The notes below the pieces were generated by a model. It saw only the letters and a list, made by a program, of their open reading frames with translations. It was not told where the DNA came from and ran no database searches. A stretch of 64,000 nucleotides of DNA from Yuukianura sp. NJ FZ-2021 (Eukaryota), in the NCBI GenBank assembly GCA_046563655.1, contig CM102283.1:3596001-3660000 (forward strand), in the 5' to 3' direction. Both the position numbers and the translations under genes were made by a program. Positions 24,189 to 63,950 of the stretch are shown piece after piece (the first letter of the stretch is position 1; each line of letters starts with the position of its first letter).

Positions 24189-26028
24189 ATGCGCAGGCGC
24201 AGCGCTACTTCAAAATTATTTCGAAAAACTTTTCTGATTTTGTTCACTTTTGGCATTTCAGTCCAACTCGTCCTCTCTTCAGTCATTTTCTCATCCAAAT
24301 TCAACCGACTGCTTGGTAAAGTCCTGAATGCTCAAAATTTTAAAAGTTTTGAAACTATTCCTTTTTTTATACTTTTAAATTTCGCAATTTTTGAAATTTT
24401 TAATGTTTTCTTTCAGAAACATATGATCCTCAAAATGGAAAAGTGTGTGAGTCAAACAAAGGTGTGAGTGGACGGTGTATGTTCATGTGGGATTGCTACA
24501 AGGTCAAAGGTCACAGTTTAGGATTGTGTAAATTAGATACTTCACTCTACGGTACTTGCTGTTACGACAATTCTACTGCGACAACTTCTGCCACGACGAC
24601 ACAAGCGACATCTTCTGCTGAAAGCGACATTGACTACCAAGAGGGCTACAATAACGTGAGCATTGAAATTCCTGAGGTCACTACTACGCCGAATCCATTT
24701 GCACAATGCGGAGTCGCAGATTTAAGCAAAGTTCGGCAAAGTTCGGCGAATTCGACATCACAAAAAAGTCGGAACTCTCCGGAATCCAGGATCGTCGGTG
24801 GCGAACCCGGTATAGACATGGTGCATGACCTTGACATGCCTTTTCACATGTCACATGCCACATGCAACATGCCACATACCACATGTTTTATTCCACATTT
24901 TTTTTGTGTTCTGTGTAGCTTCTGTGGGTCAATGGCCTTGGGTCGTATCGGTTCGTCGAGCATCCCTTTTCGGCTACACGACGACGCATTCCTGCGGTGG
25001 TGTCCTCATCAATGAAAACTGGATTGTAACTGCTGGTAACCTTCAAAATCAAAATTTTGTCTCAAAATTCCAAAATTTTTAAAATTTTGATTCTTGTTTT
25101 AATTTGTTACCGTAGCTCACTGTGTTGCTGCTCTCTCCAAATCCATAATTCGTATAAGGTTGGGCGACTTGGACTTCAAGAGTGACAGCGACAACGAAGT
25201 GGTGCCATACATCGAGAGGAAAATTGAACAAAAAGTAATTAGTAATTAAGTAATTACTGAAAGTAATTAAGTAATTACCAAAAGTAATTCAGTAATTACC
25301 AATAGTAATTCAGTAATTACTTACTTTAACTTTATTTTTCAGATAATTTACCCTACGTATAACTTCACTTCCTTTGAGAACGATCTTTCTCTGCTCAAAC
25401 TGTCAGAGCCTGTGACGTACAATGCGCATGTCCGTCCGCTGTGCCTTCCCGTTGACATGGCCAGAGATTACGTGGGTCAGAATGCCACCATCGTCGGGTG
25501 GGGCCGCATTTCGGAGAATGGACAGTACTCGCAGAATCAACTCTACGTCCAAGTTCCCATTCTGTCCAATGCAGACTGCATGCAAATGTTCAAGAATTCT
25601 GGAAGAGATGAACGCATTCCACCACATTTCATCTGTGCTGGCTACGCTGCTGGACGGAAAGACGGTTGCCAGGCAAGATTTTCAAAAAAATGTTTTAAAA
25701 AAGATTTGTTTAAAAAATTGTTTGAAATTTTGAAAAAATTAGGGCGACTCAGGTGGTCCTTTAACAGTGCAAGACTCTAATGGAATTTGGTTCCTGGCAG
25801 GAATCATGTCTTGGGGAATCGGTAAGCCACGGGGTTCTAAATTTCAAAAATTTGAATTTTCCAAAACATTTATTTTGAGTTACTAAAAAAATTTATTCGA
25901 AATTTCTAAAATAGTTTTGTTGAAATTTTAAAAAATTGAATACTGTAGGATGCGGCGAGCCACAGCAACCGGGAGTGTACACCAGGATCAGCCTCTTCAC
26001 CGACTGGATCATACAACACTCCAGTTAG
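24189..26028 (+). CDS. Stubble-like trypsin-type serine protease with N-terminal disulfide knot
   Basis: N-terminal hydrophobic segment; [20 protein letters not shown] knot; Thr-rich linker; R|IVGG activation site; TAAHC, ENDLSLL, DGCQGDSGGP, SWGIGC..PGVYTRI. Confidence 0.92.
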
Positions 26029-41440: not shown

Positions 41441-43603
41441 TTAGAAATTGCTGAGAGCAGTGTCGAGATGAAAATGGAAGTTGATGAGATACTCGGCATT
41501 TGTACGTTGGACACTAATTGCAAAAGGAGACGTTGGATGAAAAGTAAAAGCTACTAATCTCCGAGCTGCTGGAACTGGCGGTTGGCGTGCTGCTGGTGCT
41601 GGAGAAATTCCAGCAAACATTTCGAATTTAAAAAGTCCAGAGTCCCTTCCAAAAAACCTAAAATTTAAGAAAACAAAAGCTTCAAATTATACAAAGTTTC
41701 TCAAATTCAAAAGAATTGTGTAACTTTACCTAATTGGAAGTTCTCCGGAAGCCTTCGGACGTTCCATGATACTGACTCGGTGATCGTCGTAAGAAAACAG
41801 TGCTTGGTCCAAGTAAGGTGAAGGAGAGTACGACTGAGCGCTGATTGGTAGATTCGTCAATATCCGCTTGGTTGCCTCCGCTGGGCCACCGAATCGGGCA
41901 CTAGTGATTGTCTGTCGAAAATTTTGATGTGATTCCCTTAAAAAAAAACAATTTTTGAAAATTGTGAACTTCTTAAAATTTTGACCTTTTTTTAAATTTG
42001 AACTTGGTCTTACTTACATTGCAAATCGATTATTGGCCGGAGAAGAGCAGTAGCGTGCTTCATGTGTCAGAAAATTATTTCTGAAATTGTCCGTGAATGC
42101 TTCGAAGAGATCCACCAGTTCCTCGGAAGTACTGTCATATACTGCCAGTATTTCAGTGGACGAGATACAGTAAAATACGAACAGGCAATACTGTGAGTTT
42201 GGTTCGGGGACCCTTAAAGTTACCACATCCGGTGAAGAGTACTTGAGCAATAAAGTGTCTTCATCAATTAGCTGCATTTTCCAGATTCGCATGCCCTCCA
42301 ACGCTACAAAATTTTGATGAAACTGTCTCAATCTAGCTGGATCTCCAGCATCAAAGTCTTTTCTTGCCCTTCTGTACAAGTATCCCAGGAGTCGATGTTT
42401 CAGTCCATTGTAGTTTTCATCTTCAAATGCCCGGTATTGCGGAATGTTCAGAAACCCTTGGAGAACTAAAGAATCATCTTCGTGGCAGAATCGTCCGATA
42501 CTTCTCAAATGTCGAAATCCTCCGTCTACAATGTGGTAGATGTGGATAGTTTGGTGCTGGACAGAGAGAATGGCCAGAGTCTGATCGTAGAGGTAAATTC
42601 CTTGGTTGTGTGATAAGTAGATTCTGTCCACTGGGAAGGCAATTGAGTCCCTTAAAGTTCCCGATTTCAAGTCCACAATGTGAATTGTATAGTCCTCAAG
42701 GGGATATTTGGAGTTGGGTTCAACGGATTCGTTGTTTTGGTGCATTTCGTGGAAAGTTGGATGATGATGTTCGTCGTGGATGTAAGTTGCAGAGGCAACG
42801 ATTAGATACCGTGAATCTTCGGTGAAGAGAGAACATTCTCGGTTTAGTTGGTCTCCAGGTTTGGCCACTCTGATCCGAAACTTTAGAGTGAAGACGGTAC
42901 CGAACAAGTGGTTTCGAATTTGCTCACTGGCGGTATCGGTATGTTCCGGTCCGATCTGAGCGGTCCAAGGAAACTTCCTGGTCTTCGGAGTCGTTTTAGT
43001 GTCGCTGATCTTTCTCCGACGTGCCTAACATTATGAGAATAGTAAGGTAAAGTTTTAGGTAAATTGAAATAGATCGTGATATTGTAATTAACGTACCGGA
43101 GATGGACCATCTTCTGAACCAAGATCCGCCGAGGCCGAATGTGCCCGAGCACGTACTTTGCCTTCTTTTACAGCCGATGTCGAAGCAGTAGCAGGCGATG
43201 TCGCCGTGGATGTCGCTCTAGAAGATTCCAATTGTTGTTCTCCCAGCTCATACTCCTGTTTGAATAGACTTAGTGCCGACTGGGGTCCATTGAACATGTA
43301 GATGTCCACCGAAACGTAATCCCAGGAGAAAGCGACCAAGTACTTTCCATCTGGTGTGAACTTCCGTATGAAACATGGTGGTTTCTCGACATTCGTTACT
43401 GTAAAGTTAGGAAAAATACTCTGACACATTGAGCGTTCCAAGTACTTTTCAGTACCGACTCGGTTTACATTGTTGAACAGCTCCCTGGATTCCAGACGCT
43501 GGACGATATTCTGGATCGGTCTTGGTTCGACTATCAAAGGTGGTCCGCCTGTGGGATCCTCGTAGACTATTTTATTACGTATTAACTTCTTTACGTATTC
43601 CAT
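41441..43603 (-). CDS. DET1: DET1 homolog (CRL4/COP1 adaptor)
   Basis: [94 protein letters not shown]. Confidence 0.95.
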
Positions 43604-44327
43604 TACTTTAGAAATCCTAATTAATCCCAATCCGGGTCAAAAGGTCAACCAAAGGAGAAAGTGTTCAGAGTTTTAGCAAAAGAGAAAACGACACAAGTAC
43701 GAAAATGAAAAAAATGCAAAACAAAAATATTGCCGGCTGGACAAAACGTTATCTACACTCCACCCGCCCGCCAAATCATATCTGGCCAAATGATTTCAAC
43801 GCATTAGTAAATCAAGTTATAACTACTGTAAAACACTAAGGTCAAAGGTCACTAGTTGAAGTAGTAATGTTCTAATGATGTGTTCTATTTACTGAATGAC
43901 ATTTGACATTATAATTACTGAATTACTTATGAAATATCAACAATATAATTATTCAGCTTACTAATAATGCTCAACACTAAAAACAGGCTGGGGGGTGATT
44001 GCTTCCTCGCTTGGAGTAACTTTTACCTCGACCTACTTGCTGTTTAGAGAGTCATATGATCTGGGAAGGATTAATCATCAATTTTAATTACTTAATTTGT
44101 AATTCATCTCGATATTTTAAGCTTAGCAAAGCCAAAGCGACAAGGATAACGTGTCTCCTCCGAGGTGACTATCTTTACCAGTATCTGCTTGGAACAAAGT
44201 GAAAAAGTAAAAGTGTAAGTCTTCCAAAGTGTAAGTCTATGATTAGTACAATCAAACCGTTTCAGCATTTGCGTTAATCGATTTGAATGTTAATTTTAGA
44301 GACTGATACTGAAATACTTAAACTGCA

Positions 44328-48096: not shown

Positions 48097-48954
48097 ATGC
48101 CCAACAATCCGGATTACGATCAAGATCAGTGGCAAAGCGACATGGGCTCTCAGCAATGGATTGAACCCAGAGCGTTAATGTCGTAAGCATGTCGCTTTCA
48201 AATTGAGCTGGCATCCGGCCAACTCCAACTCCCTAACAAAACCTGACAGTTTTTTAAATGTGTTGACCGGAGTAGACCACAAGGACCCCGACAGAATCCG
48301 GAGAGACCGCTGGTACCGCGGTATACATTTGGTCCGAGTTACCAACAGCGTTCTGGACAAGACCACGCGAATGGATACCAAGTTCAAAGTGGATTTGAAG
48401 TTGCCCAGCAACAGATTCCGCATCTCTCTTTGACACAGATTCAAGGTCAATGGTCAACTATTCCCAGGGATCCGTTGTTTGGAGGTCCAGAAATTCCTGC
48501 GGTATTATATCATTACACCAGCCTTAGGAACTTGACCTCGATTTTGAGCCACAAAGCTCTCTATGCCAAACCCCAACCAGAAGGTGTCATCCTTCCAACA
48601 GCTAGATTTGGTACGGGCATTTACTTCACTGACCTTGGCCCCCATCACGCAACTGAAGACATACTCAAAAATAACTACGGAGTTGGACCAGCATCTTTGA
48701 GTCAAACTTATAAGACGGAAGTGTGCTTCCAGTTTTTGTCCAAATTTCTTCCGGCAGCGGCATTGGTCCCTTGCAAGGATCAAAGTTGTTGGTGGTGGTC
48801 AGGAACAACTGGGCAAGGGCATACGCGGAGGATTTGGAAGGTGAATCTCCAGAGGCTTACAATCGAGGATGGATTTTACTATATAAGGGAGCTGAATGGG
48901 CTGGGATTGCCGAAAAGTATCACAGAGAAGAGATGGAATGTCAATCTCTTTTGA
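48097..48954 (+). CDS. Toxin-type ADP-ribosyltransferase-domain protein (Tox-ART-HYD1-like), copy A
   Basis: Exons 48097-48182 and 48276-48954 join in frame. C-terminal domain LYHYT..L.SIL...L...ARFG.GIYFTDL.P....EDILKNNYG. Confidence 0.7.
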
Positions 48955-50732: not shown

Positions 50733-52119
50733 ATGGACTATCGGCATAGGAATGGACCCAGACCGTCACTGCCGTAAGCATATCGTTTTCAATACGACCT
50801 GACATCCGGCCAAACTCTATTGTCGACGGGAAAGTCCGTAACAAAAGGTGACAGTTTTGCTTTTTAAATATGTTGACCTCTGTAGACGATACTCTTTTCG
50901 GGGAAGAGGTGCTCAACGACCACGACAGCATTGGGAGAGACCGCGGGCACCTTGGACCAGACCTTGGACAAGCGGACCATCGTCATCTCCAGTGTCAAGC
51001 CCAGCACTGCCGCCGGTTCAGGACGTCAACCCATTTGACATGGCTCCAAATCATCAGGAGTTTTCAGGACAAGTACAAGCGTATTGGTGCAATGCTCATG
51101 CTCAAAATGAATTTGCAGTAGCCCAGCAACAGATCCCACAGCTCCGGGAGATACACTTTGTGGATCGTGGGTACGACATGGATCGGAATTCCTTATTGCA
51201 ACCAATGATTCAAGTCCCCCTTCTTCCACCGGATTACCCAACTGAGAGTACATACTTGCATACCACTCAAATTGAGCAGCATCAGGTTCAGGGGCCGCCA
51301 ATGCGCCAATTTTCATTTACATTTGCTAACCCTGGGTACAACTCTACTTTTTCGGGTGCAGGTCAAGGTCAAGGCCCATATCCCTTGTCAGGTCCCGGTC
51401 CAGTACATGCCAGCTCAGCTCCAGGTCCAATACATGCCAACTCCGGTCCAAGTCCACTCCATCCTCGCGCACGCTCAGTTCCGTTCGTACGACCACAGCA
51501 GTCTCGTGGTTTAGCACCTCGACTTAGCCGTCCCTTCAAACAGGTCCGACCGCCTCGTCCTCCCAGACCAACCAGTCGCAATTCTCTGAATTTGACCCAG
51601 ATTCAAGGTCAAGTGGCAACTATCCCCCGGAATCCAGCACTTCCGGTGCTTCCAGCTCCAGAACTGCCCAAGGAGTTGTACCATTACACGACCTTGAGGA
51701 ATTTGACCTCTATTTTGAGAGACAAAGCACTCTACCCCAAACCCCAACCCGCGGATGTCATCCTTAAAACGGCTAGGTTCGGTCCAGGCATTTACTTCAC
51801 TGACCTTGACCCCCATAACACTACTGAGGACATTCTTAAGAATAACTATGGAGCAGGAAAAGCATATTTGAGTCAAAGTAGAAAGACGGAAGTGTGCTTC
51901 CAGTTTTTGTCCCAGTCTCTTCCCCGCTTGGTTTTTTGTGAGGATCAGAGTTGTTTGGGGTCAGGAGGAACTGAGCATGCGCGGAAAATTTGGATGGTAG
52001 ATCTGCCGAGGCTGGATATTGGGGAGAAGGATGGATTTTACTTTATAAGGGAGCTGGATGGACTTGGGAAGGCAAAGAGTGTTACAAAGAAACGTTGGAA
52101 TGACGATTTAATTAATTGA
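50733..52119 (+). CDS. Toxin-type ADP-ribosyltransferase-domain protein (Tox-ART-HYD1-like), copy B, with long Pro/Gln-rich N-terminus
   Basis: Exons 50733-50773 and 50886-52119 (same intron position and phase as copy A). LYHYTTLRNLTSIL..ARFGPGIYFTDLDP..EDILKNNYG. Confidence 0.72.
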
Positions 52120-58627: not shown

Positions 58628-60570
58628 ATGCATCGCAGAATGTCAGAACAAGAAGGTCAGCCGGAGAATATCATCTGCCGACTTTGCTTCTACTTTGAAG
58701 CTGGTGAGTCACCTAAGCTGCTTTTAATTAAAAATAGTTGTAATTAAGTAATTACAGTTAAGTAATTACAAGTAATTAAAATTGAATTTAAGTATTTCAG
58801 CTTGAATTAACTGAAAGTTCATGTGTTTGAAAAAGTTGATGATGTGAATTTTGTTTTTTAGAGAAGCCTGGGGACTACTTTGTGGTGGCCAAATGTGGTC
58901 ACATCTACCATCATAGGTCAGTCGTCATGTCACTTTTAACTATGATTAGTTAAGATTTACAGATTTAATTGTTAGTTAATCTAAAACTAATGTTTGTTCA
59001 TCTTTTATTTGCTAATAGTTGCATCCGAGATTATCTTGATCGAGGGAGATTTGTGTAAGAAAATAATCTAAACATGAAGTTGACCTCGTGACCTCATCTC
59101 AAATTCCAGATGGAGCTTTTTATAATTTGATGACGACACACTTTTAATCTGTTGCTCTTGATTTATTTGAATTGTACAAGGTGTCCCACCTGTAATCGAC
59201 CCATGCACATTAAAAAACTGACCAAGTTGTACGGAGTGGACCCATTCCCACAACCCATCATCAACTGTAACTCTCCTTCTACGAGCCAGTAAGAACTTAT
59301 AATATTAATTAATTTAATTAGTTAATTAATTTAATTTAATTAGTTAATTAATTAATTTAATTAATTTGTTTTTATTGATTTTTTGTAGCATTTATAGTTT
59401 CAAATTGGCTTTACTTGGTTCTTCTGGCGCTGGGAAATCGTGTTTACTTCGTAGATTTTATGTATGACTGTTTTTATAAATTTTTTGAAAGTTTGCACTT
59501 GTTTTCAAAATTTTAGTTTAAAAATGCCTTTTTATAACTTTATATTTTGGTTTTAAATTGTAGGACAACACGTTTGATACCAAGATAAGTTACACTGGAG
59601 GGACAGATTTGGTAAGAATTTGTGTAATTAAGGCTAATTACACAAAGTAATTAGTAATTCATTTGTAGTTCATCAGTAATTTATGATAATTCGATGTAAT
59701 TTGTGCTTCTAGGTCCGTAAAACAATCCATATGGGAGATGGAATTGTCCAATTGATAATCGTGAGTAACTTTTCAAGAATAATTTACAAAAATTTATGGG
59801 TTTGAGGCGAAGCCCCAGCAAGAATGCACAGCATTCTTTGCTTCAACTAATTTTTTTTAAACTAAAAAAAATTTTTTCAGTGGGATACCATTGGCCAAGA
59901 CAAATTTAAGTCTGTCATTTCTACTTGTGTCAGAGATGCTCAAGGTAAATTTCAAAAGTCAAAATTTTTAGCTCAAAAATTTTTTGCTCAATTTTTTTTT
60001 CAAAATTTTGCAGGGATAATTTTCGTTTTTGACGTTGGTAAAAAAGAGAGTTTTGAGGCTGTGGAGTGGTGGTGGGAATTTGCAGAGTCATATGGCCCCA
60101 AGGACTCTGTCAAAATTCTCGTGGGGAACAAAACGGATTTAGAGAAAGATCGAGTCATCGAATCCACCCAGGGGGAGGTAAAAGAAAAATTAGGCACAAA
60201 AAAACACACTTCAATGTGCCAAAACATGCAAATTTTACACTTTTCCAACTCAAAATCTCATTCAAGTTTTACTGGTTTCCATTTTTGAAATTAGGAACTT
60301 GCAAGTCGTCTGAATGTTTCGTACTTTGAAACTTCTGCCAAAGAGGATCACAATGTAGAAGAAGTTTTTCGCACAATGACTGGAACGATTTTGCAAAACG
60401 ACTGGATTTTATCTGCAGTGCAGCAGCGATTGGGCGATTCGACGCTCAAATTGCACCAATCAAAACTCGGCTCAACTTCGAGCGAGGACGAATCAGCGTC
60501 GTGCTTCGAGTGGCTTCAGCGCGGAGTTTCAAACATTCGAAGAGCCTTTAGAACAAATTCAAGCCACTAA
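58628..60570 (+). CDS. RING-H2 finger / Rab-like GTPase fusion protein, copy 1
   Basis: Ten exons, all GT-AG and phase-compatible: 58628-58703, 58862-58916, 59019-59054, 59181-59288, 59389-59461, 59564-59611, 59713-59760, 59881-59944, 60014-60177, 60295-60570. RING: CRLC..CGHIYHHSC..CPTC. GTPase: GSSGAGKS, WDTIGQ, GNKTD, ETSAK. Confidence 0.82.
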
Positions 60571-60605
60571 ACAGCGAAAAACTGCTAAAAAAGTACGAAA
60601 AAGAA

Positions 60606-60718
60606 ACGGACCAATGAGAAACTTTCAGAGAAACCAAAATGGACCAATCAGCGACTTTGAAACAAAATGGACCAATGAGGACCCTCGTGTGAAAGAAAAC
60701 ACGGACCAATGAGAAAGC
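60606..60718. repeat. Four GGACCAAT(G/C)AG repeats (CCAAT-box-like)
   Basis: Copies at ~60608, 60640, 60669 and 60703. Confidence 0.7.
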
Positions 60719-60908
60719 GTTTTCACTTTTCCTACGAAAATATTTGACTAAAACACTGTGATTCGTCCGTAAAATGAAATGTAGTGATTTTTGTTAACTT
60801 TTGTAAACAAAATTTGAAAAACAATTGAATTAAACAAATATTTATAAGTGTAAAATATTAAAATTTTAGTTTTGTAAATAAAATTAGTTGCAAAATATGT
60901 ACTCCTCG

Positions 60909-61422
60909 TCAGCAACAGCATTCGTCGTAACTGGATCCTCCTATACCGCACAAGTAGCTGTTGAAGTTACATCCATGTGGACAGTGTCGTATGTTATATC
61001 CGCACCGTGACTCTTCACAGCCACCGTGACCACGCCCCCTTCCACCGTGACCACGCCCCCTTGCGCCGTGATGAACATGCTCATGCGCAATGTCCGTTCC
61101 ACTGCCATGAAATTCTGCTGATCCAGCAACAACTGACGGTGGAGCTCCATCAAAAAAGTCGTCATGATCGTAATAAAAATCTTGACGCCGAGAGCGGGAT
61201 TTGAACCCCTTCCCTAAAAAATGAAATTGGAAACTTTCGCCAATACGCCATTTCACAAAAAGTGTTTTTAAGCAAAAAAAAATCAGCTAAAATTCTAAAA
61301 AGTTCCAAACATTTCTTACCTTGTGAAGCAGCAGCAGCAGAATCTTCGGCATAATTTGAAAAAAGTAAGCTGAAAAATAGGCAACAAAAAATGAAAATGG
61401 GAACGGTTCTCACTGTTGCCAT
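60909..61422 (-). CDS. Small secreted His/Gly-rich peptide precursor with an 8-Cys C-terminal module
   Basis: Exons 61422-61320 and 61213-60909. Signal peptide, RSRR basic site, acidic segment, (GRGHGG)2, C-x4-C-x6-C-x3-C-x6-C-x9-CCC*. Confidence 0.7.
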
Positions 61423-62202
61423 TTTTGAAAAAGCGTGCACGACTGTTGACCTGCACTACTTAAACTTAACTGTGACATTGTTCTTTCTGTGTAGAAGGAT
61501 ATCCTGCCAGTGGTGACATGGTTCACTAGTTGATTTCGTTGAGCACGTACAAAGGAAGTAACTAAAGAGTTTAAGTTAAGAGTGAGAGTCTCAAAATTAG
61601 TAAGTAACGCTCCAACAATTTTAAATTGTCCCACCATTCCTTTTACAGCAGCATTTCATGTAATCATGCCTCCGAGGAAATAACAACAAAATGTTCACGA
61701 AAAATTGCCCAGTCGTTAACGATTTCCGTATTTCATAATATTCATTTTTTTGCAGTTTTGTCATTTGTCACTTTAAGATTTTGGTAAATTGCAACTGTTT
61801 AACTCCCCATAGTTGAAATATTTGGCTATGAAAACTATAATTTCACAAATATTTTCACTTTTACTTTTGGAGGGTCCTTACGATGACGGAAGCGGCAAAA
61901 TTTGAAAGCTTTTACTCATTTTTTGCATAATCTCTGAAACAAATTCTCCGTCGGGATCGGGAAACTTTTTGCAGTATGCTGTTTTGTTTTCTTTTGCCAG
62001 CTGACACTTCTATTGTCATTGTCATGACCTCATTATTTCAATGTCACCTTGTCATACTCATGTCGTCATCAACCATAAACGTCAATACTTTAACAAAATT
62101 ATTCAAAATTTATATTTAAAATGGTCCAAATGTTAATTCAAAATTATTTAGTTCCAAGCATCTGTGATATAGACAGGAGGTAAATGCGTGGTTTTCAGCA
62201 GA

Positions 62203-62285
62203 GCCTCTATAGCTCAGTGGTTAGAGCATCTGTCTTGTATCCTCAATTTAACAGAAGGTCGGTAGTTCGAACCTGCCTAGAGGCT
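62203..62285 (+). tRNA. tRNA-Thr(UGU) with a 10-nt intron at 37/38
   Basis: Acceptor GCCTCTA/TAGAGGC, D-arm GCTC/GAGC, anticodon stem TCTGT/ACAGA with loop CT-TGT-A[TCCTCAATTT]A, T-arm GGTAG-TTCGAAC-CTGCC; oligo-T Pol III terminator follows. Confidence 0.85.
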
Positions 62286-62813
62286 TAATTTTTTTTAAAA
62301 TTAATTAATGATCAATTAAGTTTTGATTTTGAATTATTTCAACACGTAGAGTCTTCTATTTTGGAGTAAAACACGATTTTCGTATTTTTAATTCGCAAAA
62401 TACTTTAAAAATCTTTAACAACAACGCTTTGCAAAGATTTTTGAATTAAAAATTGATTAATTTTAAAAATTTATTTTGGAAAATGAACACTTATGTTTCA
62501 TGGTTTGTGTGAACCGTGCTTAAAGTTGGGGTGAAAACATGTTTTCTGCTTCCTTGAGCCTCTTTGGATTTGCTTTAAAAATTTTATTGAAAAAAATGAA
62601 TAATGTCGACTCTTATGGCCGAAGGCTGATTTTGGGCAGAAATCAGCGTCAGTTCCTATTATGATAAGGTGAACTGATTGCGAATTTGATAAGACTGGGA
62701 AGCGCTGAATGCAAACAGCGACACTACGTTAGGCAACCTCAGTTTTATTGAGCATAGCTCAATTGTTTGCCAAAACTGATCAGTGCAATTCCCCAAAATT
62801 TTAGTTGAATCAA

Positions 62814-63950
62814 ATGGCAGAGCACTTTACGTGTGCCATTTGTCTCGATTTTGCTTCTGGTAATTACAAGCAGTAATTACTTTAATTTCGTTTGATTTGA
62901 ATTAATTTTACTTAATTTTTCCCGGGTAGAATATCCTAACAAAGACTATTTTGTGAGCACCCGCGGAGGACACATCTTCCACTTTCTCTGTATCAAACAA
63001 CACATCAACAACGGAGATGACACGTCAGTATAACAGTCAAAGTCCAAACTTCAAAGAATCAAATTTCAAAATCAGTTTTCAAAATTTGGAATTTCGTTTA
63101 CTCAAAATTTTGGTAGATGCCCATTGTGCCGAGAACCAGTAGTGCTAAACGACCTGACGCGTCTTTACGGTATCCGAATCAAGAAAACAGCAATGTCGGT
63201 TCGATTGCAATCCGACGGCAGCGACGGAACGTTACCGTAAGTTTCCAAAAATTCGAAACGAAAAGACCACAAACTTTTTCAAATGGCAAAAATTTCAGGT
63301 CAATCAAAATTGTGATACTTGGGAACAGCAGTGTTGGAAAATCCAGCATTCTCAGAAGATTCGCCGTAAGTTTTTCTAAATAAGCAGTACAAACCACAAT
63401 ATTCTAAACTTTAAAATTTAAAACAGCTCTGTTTCTAAAATTTTTAGAACAAAGAATTCAACGTAGAACTGAACCCCACATGTGGCTGTGATGTCGTAAG
63501 TACTTTTGCTACTCCATATCCTTAAAAACCGAAATTTCAGTTGTTGTTTTTTTTTCAAAATCAAAATTGAATTTTGAAAACTAGGTTTTCCGGAACATTG
63601 CAATCGGTGGAAAAGTTTTTCGACTGAACCTGGTACGTTATCTCAATTTTCCTCAATCTAAATCAAACATTGACCCAGATCGTTGACGTTTGTGTAAAAA
63701 TGTTGACCTTTGACCTTTGAAGTGGGACACAGCAGGTCAAGAAAACTTTAGATCCGTCGTGTCCACTACAGTAAGAGGTGCCATGGGTGTCATCTTGGTC
63801 TATGACGTCACAGACATACTTTCACTTAACGACGTAGAAGGCTGGCTAAAATTTGCACAATCAAATGGACCAGAAGATTCTGTCAAAATTTTAGTCGGAA
63901 ACAAAACGGATTTGACTGAACATCGCAAAGTGACTCCACTCATAGGCCAG
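62814..63950 (+). CDS. RING / Rab-like GTPase fusion protein, copy 2 (3' end beyond the window)
   Basis: Exons 62814-62859, 62930-63023, 63117-63236, 63299-63365, 63448-63495, 63585-63632, 63723-63950 in frame. CAIC..GGHIFHFLC..CPLC then GNSSVGKS, WDTAGQ, GNKTD. Confidence 0.8.

Follow-up and report, generated by a model that had tools for sequence, protein, structure and literature searches.

Tandem RING–Rab genes from Yuukianura sp. belong to a single-chain springtail family of putative GTPase-coupled ubiquitin ligases

Two neighbouring genes that join an N-terminal RING-type finger to a Rab-type G domain lie within a 64,000-nt stretch of contig CM102283.1 from Yuukianura sp. NJ FZ-2021 (the window). 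Copy 1 is complete and has the following features:

58628–60570, + strand: copy 1, complete RING–Rab gene, 10 exons, 315 aa, frame open to TAA
58628–58703, 58862–58916, 59019–59054, 59181–59288 and 59389–59461, + strand: exons 1–5
59564–59611, 59713–59760, 59881–59944, 60014–60177 and 60295–60570, + strand: exons 6–10
58628–59288, + strand: RING-H2 finger, LTKLYG tail and linker (exons 1–4)
59289–59388, + strand: phase-2 junction intron of 100 nt separating the RING/linker exon from the G1 exon (GT at 59289, AG at 59387–59388)
59389–60570, + strand: Rab-type G domain and C-terminal extension (exons 5–10)
59417–59440, + strand: P-loop (G1) GSSGAGKS, residues 102–109, in the first exon past the junction intron
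60499–60552, + strand: predicted C-terminal amphipathic segment, residues 293–310, where a CC/CXC prenyl motif would otherwise end the protein

In the gene model rebuilt from the window, all nine copy 1 introns are bounded by GT and AG, the smallest exons measure 36, 48, 48 and 55 nt, and the 948-nt coding sequence yields 315 residues plus the stop. Eight zinc ligands (C17, C20, C37, H39, H42, C45, C57 and C60) are spread over four exons and are followed by LTKLYG at residues 69–74. The motifs G1 to G5, which the initial annotation had seen in this copy, are all located (G3 DTIGQ 150–154, G4 NKTD 208–211, G5 SAK 238–240), and Pfam Ras is matched by exon 9 and exon 10 taken singly (42.1 and 24.5 bits, cutoff 21.6).

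The second gene follows on the same strand:

62814–63950, + strand: copy 2, RING–Rab gene running off the window at its 3′ end, 7 exons inside
62814–62859, 62930–63023, 63117–63236 and 63299–63365, + strand: exons 1–4
63448–63495, 63585–63632 and 63723–63950, + strand: exons 5–7
62814–63236, + strand: RING-like finger with 7 of 8 zinc ligands, LTRLYG tail and linker
63237–63298, + strand: phase-2 GT–AG junction intron of 62 nt separating the RING/linker exon from the G1 exon
63299–63950, + strand: Rab-type G domain, G1 to G4 within the window

All copy 2 introns in the window are GT–AG, and a GT donor directly after 63950 indicates that the gene extends past the window. Its finger retains C7, C10, H30, H33, C36 and C48/C51 (CPLC), with G28 at the position expected for the third Cys; this replacement (TRGGH) is absent from the initial annotation. 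Taken singly, exon 2 matches RING profiles below threshold only (zf-C3HC4, 16.1 bits). The G domain carries GNSSVGKS (95–102), DTAGQ (143–147) and NKTD (201–204), and exon 7 alone scores 72.2 bits against Pfam Ras (cutoff 21.6). A tblastn search of the window with both proteins found no third RING–Rab copy.

These in-frame models bear out the RING–linker–Rab architecture first proposed for both genes and reproduce exactly its two splice junctions, 59288/59389 and 63236/63299. The copies are about 40% identical and share the same layout, the final RING Cys pair and the entire linker being encoded on a single exon in each. Six introns occupy identical positions, listed here as codon/phase in copy 1 and copy 2:

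26/1 = 16/1, 56/2 = 47/2, 117/0 = 110/0
133/0 = 126/0, 149/0 = 142/0, 225/0 = 218/0

The junction intron has equal phase in both (92/2 and 87/2) and is shifted by about two codons within the divergent linker; introns 44/2 and 170/1 of copy 1 are extra relative to copy 2. The earlier claim that two diverged copies share their layout and most intron positions holds, and the two are old paralogues rather than a chance chimera.

Independent unspliced open reading frames from relatives, on short public contigs, match both models. Copy 1 is matched colinearly by P0001, a 315-aa frame from JGI and Logan whose longest contig measures 1796 nt; the two are 84% identical (264 of 313 aligned residues), and a gap falls at none of the nine junctions, so that the RING/Rab junction too is crossed without one. 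P0014 (277 aa; 1000-nt contig), which ends in KKCSC, is 69% identical to copy 2 (149/216) and colinear across six junctions, including the RING/Rab junction, where it is likewise gapless. From the shortness of these contigs we infer that they are best read as cDNA-derived, given an uninterrupted frame in a close relative of a gene with nine introns.

RING–Rab proteins are a single-chain family common to springtails. At least 13 distinct proteins combine RING and Ras domains; the only named members are uncharacterised springtail gene predictions from Allacma fusca (two) and Orchesella dallaii (one), and the annotations of two springtail genomes label such members 'RING-type domain-containing protein'. 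Among the best 150 HMMER representatives, nine align as one unbroken stretch that begins in the RING (query residue 15–19) and extends to residue 260, where the G domain ends, or further. Ras and RING matches at E ≤ 0.001 were found in nine of ten scanned proteins, the RING exceeding the Pfam cutoff in eight of them, and a RING HMM built here matches 15 of 269 collected proteins, which form 13 distinct clusters. The ESM Atlas holds RING + Ras clusters elsewhere too, one of them chiefly from Nematoda. The initial annotation knew of no characterised RING–Rab fusion; our literature search found no publication on the architecture, but its prediction in two springtail genomes and in ESM Atlas clusters means that the architecture itself had already been recorded.

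In the G-domain tree the family falls among Rab1/8/18/35-like Rabs as one clade made up of several old paralogue lineages, and is not orthologous to any named Rab included. The clade contains all 14 arthropod-like rows together with P0039 and P0046, which lack a RING-HMM match and whose alignments begin at query residues 62 and 76; its support is 83/80 when P0071 is left out and 85/0 when it is included, and stars mark the orthogroups within it. At least seven old lineages with differing tails make up the radiation. The expansion proposed at the outset is upheld by the domain-architecture search and the Rab phylogeny, as several diverged lineages within springtails.

The RING of P0001, the orthologue of copy 1, exceeds the Pfam cutoffs for zf-RING_2 (30.6 bits, cutoff 27.3), zf-rbx1 (31.8, cutoff 31) and zf-C3HC4 (28, cutoff 21). 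Among the 60 solved-structure matches listed, the closest to the copy 1 RING is RNF4 (3ng2_A; E 3.5e-7, 33.8 bits), and TRAIP, to whose RING type (TRAIP/NOPO) the initial annotation had likened copy 1, is absent from those 60. Alignment with RNF4 begins shortly ahead of the first Cys and continues as far as the final residues of the RNF4 chain, with K-K-L-T-K-L-Y facing K-R-Y-H-P-I-Y. The L-x-x-L-Y-G tail is conserved, with L71 and L74 at least 90% conserved across 11 family members. A RING homodimer was predicted with a score of 0.34, against 0.00 for the best control, and may reflect the model's memory of solved RNF4 dimers, so we take it as likeness rather than binding. That level is reached by 21 of 30 microbial proteins solved as pairs and by none of 23 solved as single chains; among eukaryotic proteins, 17 of 29 pairs and none of 30 single chains reach it. 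Contact agreement between runs is at least 64% and partner pLDDT at least 70, with a predicted interface at residues 17–18, 36–42 and 72–77. The residue after the last RING Cys, at the 'linchpin' position through which RNF4-type RINGs activate E2~ubiquitin, is Asn, Asp or Ser in copy 1's group and Arg in copy 2's group. RING and G domain are both confidently folded and are joined by a linker of about 15–20 aa; its predicted disorder (residues 78–92, pLDDT < 50) gives no sign of direct allosteric coupling between nucleotide state and RING.

The G domain is Rab1/8-like, with intact nucleotide-binding motifs and catalytic Gln. P0001 scores 161.7 bits against Pfam Ras (residues 99–259) and only 34.2 bits against Arf. 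In the PDB, Rab1A/B and Ypt1 are the top sequence matches (E about 1e-38 to 1e-40), and Foldseek returns Rab8a, Rab10 and Rab1 (TMt 0.83–0.92). Switch II of copy 1's group has Ile for Ala (DTIGQ versus DTAGQ). Six of ten aligned members end in CSC, CGC, SCC, CCN or CCE. Copy 1 ends in ...NSSH, its lone Cys lying 22 residues from the end, and of all its 18-residue stretches, residues 293–310 show the largest helical hydrophobic moment (0.74); AlphaFold2 places a helix at 294–310 of P0001. Copy 1's group has lost the prenyl motif and carries a predicted amphipathic C-terminal helix instead.

We lean towards reading the two genes as tandem, anciently diverged paralogues encoding an E3 ligase gated by its Rab switch and by membrane location. 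In its GTP form, the Rab domain would place the protein on a particular membrane, anchored by C-terminal geranylgeranyl groups in most paralogues, including copy 2's orthologue, and by the basic amphipathic helix in copy 1's group. Crowding there would let RING fingers pair through their tails in the manner of RNF4, and the paired RING would recruit charged E2 and attach ubiquitin to itself, to effectors or to membrane proteins close by. The groups of copies 1 and 2 are likely subfunctionalised, since copy 1's group is unprenylated and carries DTIGQ, and copy 2's group has lost a zinc ligand and kept the Arg after the last Cys.

That the fusion is a gene-model artefact, with RING and Rab exons on separate adjacent transcripts, is barely credible. 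In copy 2, the frame opened by an ATG at 63117 does continue into the Rab frame if the junction intron is left unspliced (ORF 63117–63383), making an intron-retaining, RING-less product conceivable. Yet the junction introns are just 100 and 62 nt, the relatives' unspliced frames match both spliced models over all junctions, and the architecture recurs in 13 distinct proteins, three independent genome annotations among them. In copy 1, moreover, a stand-alone Rab would lack any start codon: the stop-to-stop frame entering exon 5 (59348–59467) has no Met, so such an ORF cannot begin there. A different alternative, which we consider unlikely, is that the RING no longer catalyses ubiquitin transfer and serves instead for pairing or docking, leaving obligate dimeric or adaptor-bearing Rabs, at least in copy 2's group. 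The third Cys is Gly in copy 2 and its orthologue P0014 and Asn in P0065, the second is lost in P0071 and the last in P0013, and ligand spacing is altered in P0020 and P0022, so ligase activity may not be general; the tail, a predicted dimer contact, is conserved despite these losses. Against this, all eight ligands are kept in copy 1, P0001, P0004, P0154, P0029 and P0038, the Pfam RING match is above cutoff in eight of ten scanned members, and copy 2's group retains the Arg at the presumed E2~ubiquitin-activating position.

It is also improbable, in our estimate, that the RING acts mostly in cis as a means of self-destruction or self-marking, ubiquitinating its own Rab domain to curtail how long the switch stays active or to alter effector binding, rather than acting on other proteins. 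The flexible linker would let the RING reach its own or its partner's G domain, and TRIM23 reportedly autoubiquitinates its ARF domain; however, the sequence holds nothing to tell cis from trans targets, and at least seven old lineages with different tails better fit differing locations or targets. Under the preferred reading, a Rab-gated ligase, the family may link the attachment of ubiquitin to a membrane-borne GTP switch. The architecture, already predicted in springtail annotations, would then represent a type of GTPase-coupled E3 ligase. The original observation is confirmed and its interpretation partly supported, for the architecture, the age of the paralogues and the springtail lineages; a GTP-switched ligase acting in traffic or immunity is a putative function.

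Compared with known systems, the family resembles Rab1/Ypt1, Rab8 and Rab10 in G1 to G5, catalytic Gln and fold, and most members share the CXC/CC ending. It differs in forming its own clade and in adding about 90–100 residues of RING and linker at the N-terminus; copy 1's group also departs in its missing terminal prenyl motif and in the Ile of its DTAGQ motif. RNF4 is a SUMO-targeted ubiquitin ligase with a dimeric RING, and the homodimer predicted here uses the same elements (residues before the first Cys, central strand and tail). The finger here is of the H2 type, with His as fifth ligand, only 16 residues precede it, leaving no room for SUMO-interaction motifs, and its tail is internal, leading into the linker and Rab domain, whereas that of RNF4 is the protein C-terminus. 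TRIM23/ARD1, composed of RING, B-boxes, coiled coil and ARF domain, unites a RING E3 and a Ras-superfamily small GTPase and embodies the same idea of a GTPase-coupled ligase in one chain. The present proteins have no B-box or coiled-coil match, are about half the size, carry a Rab-type GTPase and have an RNF4-like rather than TRIM-like RING. Small GTPases are also wired to ubiquitin ligation in Rab40 (Rab plus SOCS box), which brings a cullin-RING ligase to membranes, and in RhoBTB (Rho plus BTB). There a C-terminal adaptor recruits a separate cullin-RING ligase, whereas here the RING is N-terminal and in the same chain; the Pfam matches listed for P0001 and ten scanned members include no SOCS or BTB. 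Fusions of RING and GTPase also exist beyond those the initial annotation had named: RNF112/ZNF179 is described as carrying an N-terminal RING ahead of a GTPase domain (PMC12012479). Its GTPase is a large dynamin/GBP-like domain, in contrast to the small Ras-superfamily switch of the RING–Rab proteins.

Two plus-strand genes with very short exons occupy 58628-63950, and we rebuilt both by hand with script-checked boundaries. Each encodes a RING finger joined through a linker to a Rab-like G domain, and they are referred to here as copy 1 and copy 2.

58628-58703, 58862-58916, 59019-59054, 59181-59288, 59389-59461, plus strand: copy 1 exons 1-5
59564-59611, 59713-59760, 59881-59944, 60014-60177, 60295-60570, plus strand: copy 1 exons 6-10
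62814-62859, 62930-63023, 63117-63236, 63299-63365, plus strand: copy 2 exons 1-4, GT-AG introns
63448-63495, 63585-63632, 63723-63950, plus strand: copy 2 exons 5-7, GT-AG introns, the last exons in the window

All nine introns of copy 1 are bounded by GT...AG, and its joined coding sequence of 948 nt comprises 315 codons followed by TAA. A GT donor directly after 63950 indicates that copy 2 extends past the end of the window. These exon models coincide exactly with the coordinates of the initial annotation, including the RING/Rab junctions 59288/59389 (copy 1) and 63236/63299 (copy 2). That annotation had further held that the architecture and most intron positions are common to two diverged copies; at about 40% identity, the copies share six intron positions with identical phases. 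The junction intron (100 nt in copy 1, 62 nt in copy 2) also has the same phase in both, shifted by about two codons inside the divergent linker, and copy 1 carries two introns absent from copy 2. No third copy was found in the window.

The exon structure itself ties the two domains together. In both copies, a single exon holds the whole linker along with the last Cys-x-x-Cys of the RING, and the exon after the junction begins a few residues ahead of the P-loop strand. The copy 1 frame leading into the P-loop exon (ORF 59348-59467) lacks a Met, so no stand-alone Rab is translatable from there. The Pfam Ras model (PF00071, cutoff 21.6 bits) already matches single window exons, at 72.2, 42.1, and 24.5 bits. 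The strongest support for the fusion comes from relatives outside the window. The last exon of copy 1, used as a query, matched one protein only, P0001 (315 aa; JGI and Logan; longest contig 1796 nt), which is colinear with spliced copy 1 over nine of nine junctions at 84% identity (264/313), with only two gaps, within exons 1 and 10. The counterpart for copy 2 is P0014, a 277-aa protein from a 1000-nt JGI contig, and it stays colinear over six junctions at 69% identity (149/216). The proposal that RING, linker, and Rab form one protein is thus upheld across all junctions compared. Because both relatives are uninterrupted ORFs on short contigs, whereas the orthologue here has nine introns, we infer an mRNA origin for the contigs. 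In light of this colinearity, it is highly improbable that the fusion is an artefact of gene modelling.

Metagenome scans added no further relatives. Scanning with P0001 gave 123 pattern matches, none of which encodes a relative, and the 80 loci returned with P0014 were rejected as ordinary Rabs caught by the WDTAGQEN pattern, matching from residue 76 or 88 onward only; the contig of P0014 itself was not among these 80. Separately, exon 3 of copy 2 begins with an ATG that opens an 88-codon frame (63117-63383, plus strand); this frame differs from that of the RING and, if the 62-nt junction intron is left unspliced, continues across it into the Rab frame. An intron-retaining copy 2 transcript could therefore encode a RING-less Rab, although this arrangement may be a coincidence.

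The copy 1 RING is of the RING-H2 type, with eight zinc ligands in a cross-brace arrangement (C17, C20, C37, H39, H42, C45, C57, and C60) and an LTKLYG tail at residues 69-74. Copy 2 retains seven of the eight ligands, with Gly at the third Cys position (TRGGH). Ligand sets are incomplete or shifted in P0014, P0065, P0071, P0013, P0020, and P0022 as well as in copy 2. Single window exons give only sub-threshold Pfam RING matches, and scores above cutoff come from the orthologues: P0001 matches zf-RING_2 (30.6 bits, cutoff 27.3), zf-rbx1 (31.8 bits, cutoff 31), and zf-C3HC4 (28 bits, cutoff 21), and P0014 matches zf-RING_2 at 30.2 bits. Among the best 60 of 120 PDB sequence matches to the RING region at E ≤ 1, the nearest solved structure is RNF4 (3ng2_A, E 3.5e-7, 33.8 bits; tandem-RING construct 4ap4_A, E 8.3e-14), and TRAIP, to which this RING had been likened, is absent from the same 60. 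The RNF4 alignment spans from just ahead of the first Cys through the C-terminal tail of RNF4 to its last residues, and the corresponding L-x-x-L-Y-G tail is among the best-conserved stretches in the N-terminal half of the family.

A predicted homodimer of P0001 residues 1-95 scored 0.34, compared with 0.00 for the best control, and passes the tool's mark, but since RNF4 dimers have already been solved this score reads as likeness, perhaps as model memory, and not as binding. Of the proteins known from solved pairs, 21 of 30 attain this mark, compared with none of the 23 known as single chains; for eukaryotes the corresponding counts are 17 of 29 and 0 of 30. Contact agreement between runs was at least 64% and partner pLDDT at least 70, with predicted contacts at residues 17-18, 36-42, and 72-77. 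Sequence and model together therefore suggest an RNF4-type RING with a C-terminal aromatic dimer-contact tail.

The G domain is that of a Rab, with G1 to G5 and the switch II Gln in place. As had been claimed for copy 1, these motifs can be read in its sequence, the motif search placing G1 GSSGAGKS (102-109), G3 DTIGQ (150-154), G4 NKTD (208-211), and G5 SAK (238-240); the group to which copy 1 belongs carries Ile for Ala in DTAGQ. In copy 2 the motifs are GNSSVGKS, DTAGQ, and NKTD, and G5 falls beyond the end of the window. All 11 family members compared have the same switch I Thr. P0001 matches Pfam Ras at 161.7 bits over residues 99-259, and the nearest PDB sequences to its G domain are Rab1A/B and Ypt1 (E ~1e-38 to 1e-40). 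By Foldseek, the nearest folds are Rab8a, Rab10, and Rab1 (TMt 0.83-0.92 over 161-192 aligned columns), and no solved chain was found that spans both the RING and the G domain. AlphaFold2, run on P0001 with an 11-sequence family alignment (mean pLDDT 76.4), predicts a folded RING (~19-75) and Rab domain (95-260), a linker with pLDDT below 50 at residues 78-92, and a C-terminal helix at 294-310.

The C-terminus varies across the family. Six of ten aligned members end in a Rab-like CSC, CGC, SCC, CCN, or CCE. Copy 1 ends in ...RTNSSH, with no CC/CXC/CCX geranylgeranylation motif and one Cys 22 residues from its end; in copy 1, P0001, and P0154 alike, a lone Cys precedes an extension of 20-27 residues, and in P0004 an internal CC is retained ahead of an extension about 50 residues long. 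Residues 293-310 of the copy 1 extension have a helical hydrophobic moment of 0.74, the maximum of the protein, from which we infer that this amphipathic extension serves as a replacement membrane anchor. P0014 ends in KKCSC, and copy 2, whose own C-terminus lies outside the window, probably carries the geranylgeranylation motif as well.

An exhaustive HMMER search with P0001 across 1.84 billion representatives gave 57,081 matches at E ≤ 0.001, a number in keeping with a Rab domain. Of the top 150, nine align unbroken, entering at query residue 15-19 in the RING and extending at least as far as residue 260, where the G domain ends. Pfam Ras and RING were both found at E ≤ 0.001 in nine of ten scanned proteins, with the RING above cutoff in eight of the nine and sub-threshold in P0065; the tenth, P0006, has no Pfam RING match and its alignment begins past the RING, at query residue 71. 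A RING HMM built from the family matched 15 of 269 proteins, corresponding to 13 distinct clusters. A word-index search yielded five RING-bearing proteins among 120 listed of 140 at E ≤ 1e-20, and as it missed members known from HMMER it does not amount to a census. The only members with source names are from the springtails Allacma fusca (CAG7702452.1 and CAG7838646.1) and Orchesella dallaii (CAL8075497.1), all three annotated as 'RING-type domain-containing protein', and two further members are labelled 'Rab-1A' by JGI. Springtail annotations and short environmental contigs thus hide a sizeable uncharacterised family under such names.

Seven candidates (P0002, P0003, P0005, P0007, P0008, P0010, and P0011) were excluded from the family because the family HMM finds no RING in them. 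All seven are long, high-scoring predictions of a multi-Rab or unrelated kind, and their sources are a fungus, a clam, rotifers, a bacterium, and a tick. Many of the top-scoring matches, among them P0002, P0003, P0005, P0008, P0010, and P0011, are 400-650 aa long with two to four tandem Rab-like domains, their sources being fungus, clam, rotifers, tick, or unnamed; each is either a genuine multi-Rab protein or the product of tandem genes merged in prediction.

To place the family, a maximum-likelihood tree of G domains was built from 64 rows, namely the family, 15 named GTPases, and 34 best single-domain matches, with the reference set limited to matches gathered here; P0227, a RING-bearing ENA protein, was left out because an insert splits its G-domain match. 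One clade holds all 14 arthropod-like RING-Rab rows together with P0039 and P0046, two proteins with no RING-HMM match whose alignments begin at query residues 62 and 76. When P0071 is left out, this clade has support of 83/80; when it is included, 85/0. The clade falls within a group of Rab1-, Rab8-, Rab18-, and Rab35-like sequences, which a 100/99* branch divides from an outgroup that resembles Rap and from a yeast sequence named 'Ras-like...'; among the named Rabs in the tree, it has no supported sister. Copy 1 groups with P0001, P0154, P0006, and P0004 (100/97*) and copy 2 with P0014 (100/99*), and these separate starred subgroups place the two copies in different, old orthogroups. Within the family there are at least seven deep lineages.

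Proteins of this architecture probably also occur elsewhere. One ESM Atlas candidate cluster has 56 members, 93% with Ras and zf-RING_UBOX, and another, mostly from Nematoda, has 63 members, with Ras in 100% and zf-C3HC4 in 48%. Two ENA proteins, P0101 and P0227, which are probably from protists, combine a RING with a prenylated-type Rab, N/K-rich low complexity, and a terminal SCC or CKC; in the tree, the long branch of P0101 attaches next to the arthropod-like clade but outside it, at a weakly supported position (82/51). Given these clusters and proteins, the RING-Rab architecture is probably not unique to springtails. It is already present, unnamed, in public protein sets, and such fusions may have arisen more than once. 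A literature search at the level of titles and abstract openings found no RING-Rab fusion.

The remainder of the window carries several unrelated features.

24404-25780, plus strand: trypsin-family serine protease gene
42014-43636, minus strand: DET1 homologue
48247-48954 and 50842-52119, plus strand: two paralogous ORFs with a common C-terminal domain
60909-61455, minus strand: small gene between copy 1 and copy 2, from ORF reading
62202-62286, plus strand: tRNA-Thr(TGT) with a 10-nt intron, between copy 1 and copy 2

The protease gene matches Pfam Trypsin at 76.3 bits on ORF 25271-25780, and the Cys-rich ORF upstream within it (24404-25015) has no Pfam match. All listed matches of the DET1 homologue carry PF09737. 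The named ones are led by Allacma fusca (56%) and Orchesella dallaii (58%), with a mite and a stick insect next, and on this basis the window probably represents springtail DNA. The paralogous ORFs at 48247-48954 and 50842-52119 give sub-threshold Pfam matches to Tox-ART-HYD1, the HYD1-signature ADP-ribosyltransferase (23.0 and 20.9 bits, respectively, cutoff 25), the former also matching the PARP catalytic domain weakly (18.5 bits, cutoff 26.7); the N-terminal parts of both are rich in Pro and Gln. The first exon of the small minus-strand gene (MATVRTVPIFIFCCLFFSLLF...) resembles a signal peptide, a His/Gly-rich repeat (HGGRGRG, twice) comes next, and the C-terminus is rich in Cys. The gene has no Pfam match, and judging from these features its product may be a secreted peptide. 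The tRNA was found by ARAGORN with introns allowed, is missed in the default mode, and scores 60.5 bits against the Rfam tRNA model at 62203-62285.

What the RING-Rab proteins do can be approached from what the evidence settles, namely the single-chain architecture, its conservation, the intact GTPase motifs, and a RING that resembles RNF4, tail included. We lean, by a little over even, towards Rab-located RING ligases activated by dimerisation. The protein would be targeted to a membrane, on which RING fingers would pair; the RING would then recruit an E2 and ubiquitinate its putative substrates. The degenerate zinc sites of several members favour a different role, in which the RING is a non-catalytic pairing module, and we regard this as unlikely but worth carrying. 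That the RING acts in cis as a self-marking device is more doubtful again.

The ligase reading can be extended to the family as a whole. Tentatively, and with less than even confidence, springtails may have radiated at least seven old lineages of membrane-anchored, Rab-switched, dimerisation-activated RING ligases, each GTP-loaded paralogue marking its own compartment or cargo, with forms including the unprenylated amphipathic-helix type of copy 1 and the reduced-zinc type of copy 2. A natural single-chain RING-Rab would offer a compact example, open to testing, in which a switch and a location together gate ubiquitin ligation. Variation among the paralogues supplies ready-made controls: prenylated or not, zinc site complete or reduced, and Ala or Ile in switch II.

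Membranes owe their identity to Rab GTPases, and ubiquitin determines what becomes of the proteins they carry. The known link between the two runs through a separate adaptor, as in Rab40 with Cullin-5, and other GTPase classes are tied to ubiquitin ligation, as in TRIM23 with ARF; the general idea of GTPase-coupled ligation is familiar from TRIM23, Rab40, and RhoBTB. TRIM23/ARD1 combines a B-box and coiled coil with an ARF-type GTPase, whereas the RING-Rab proteins have no B-box match, a Ras-type domain (161.7 bits for Ras versus 34.2 for Arf on P0001), and a linker of about 20 residues that is predicted to be disordered. They differ from Rab40 in having no SOCS box among the Pfam matches listed for P0001 (25 of 30 families) or in the 10 scanned members. 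Only 16 residues in copy 1 and 6 in copy 2 precede the first Cys, with no N-terminal SUMO-interaction motifs, and so few residues indicate that neither copy is an RNF4 orthologue. RNF112 is reported to pair a RING with a dynamin-like GTPase domain (PMC12012479). If they are indeed ligases, the RING-Rab proteins would, without a characterised counterpart, form a direct single-chain link from Rab identity to ubiquitin signalling.
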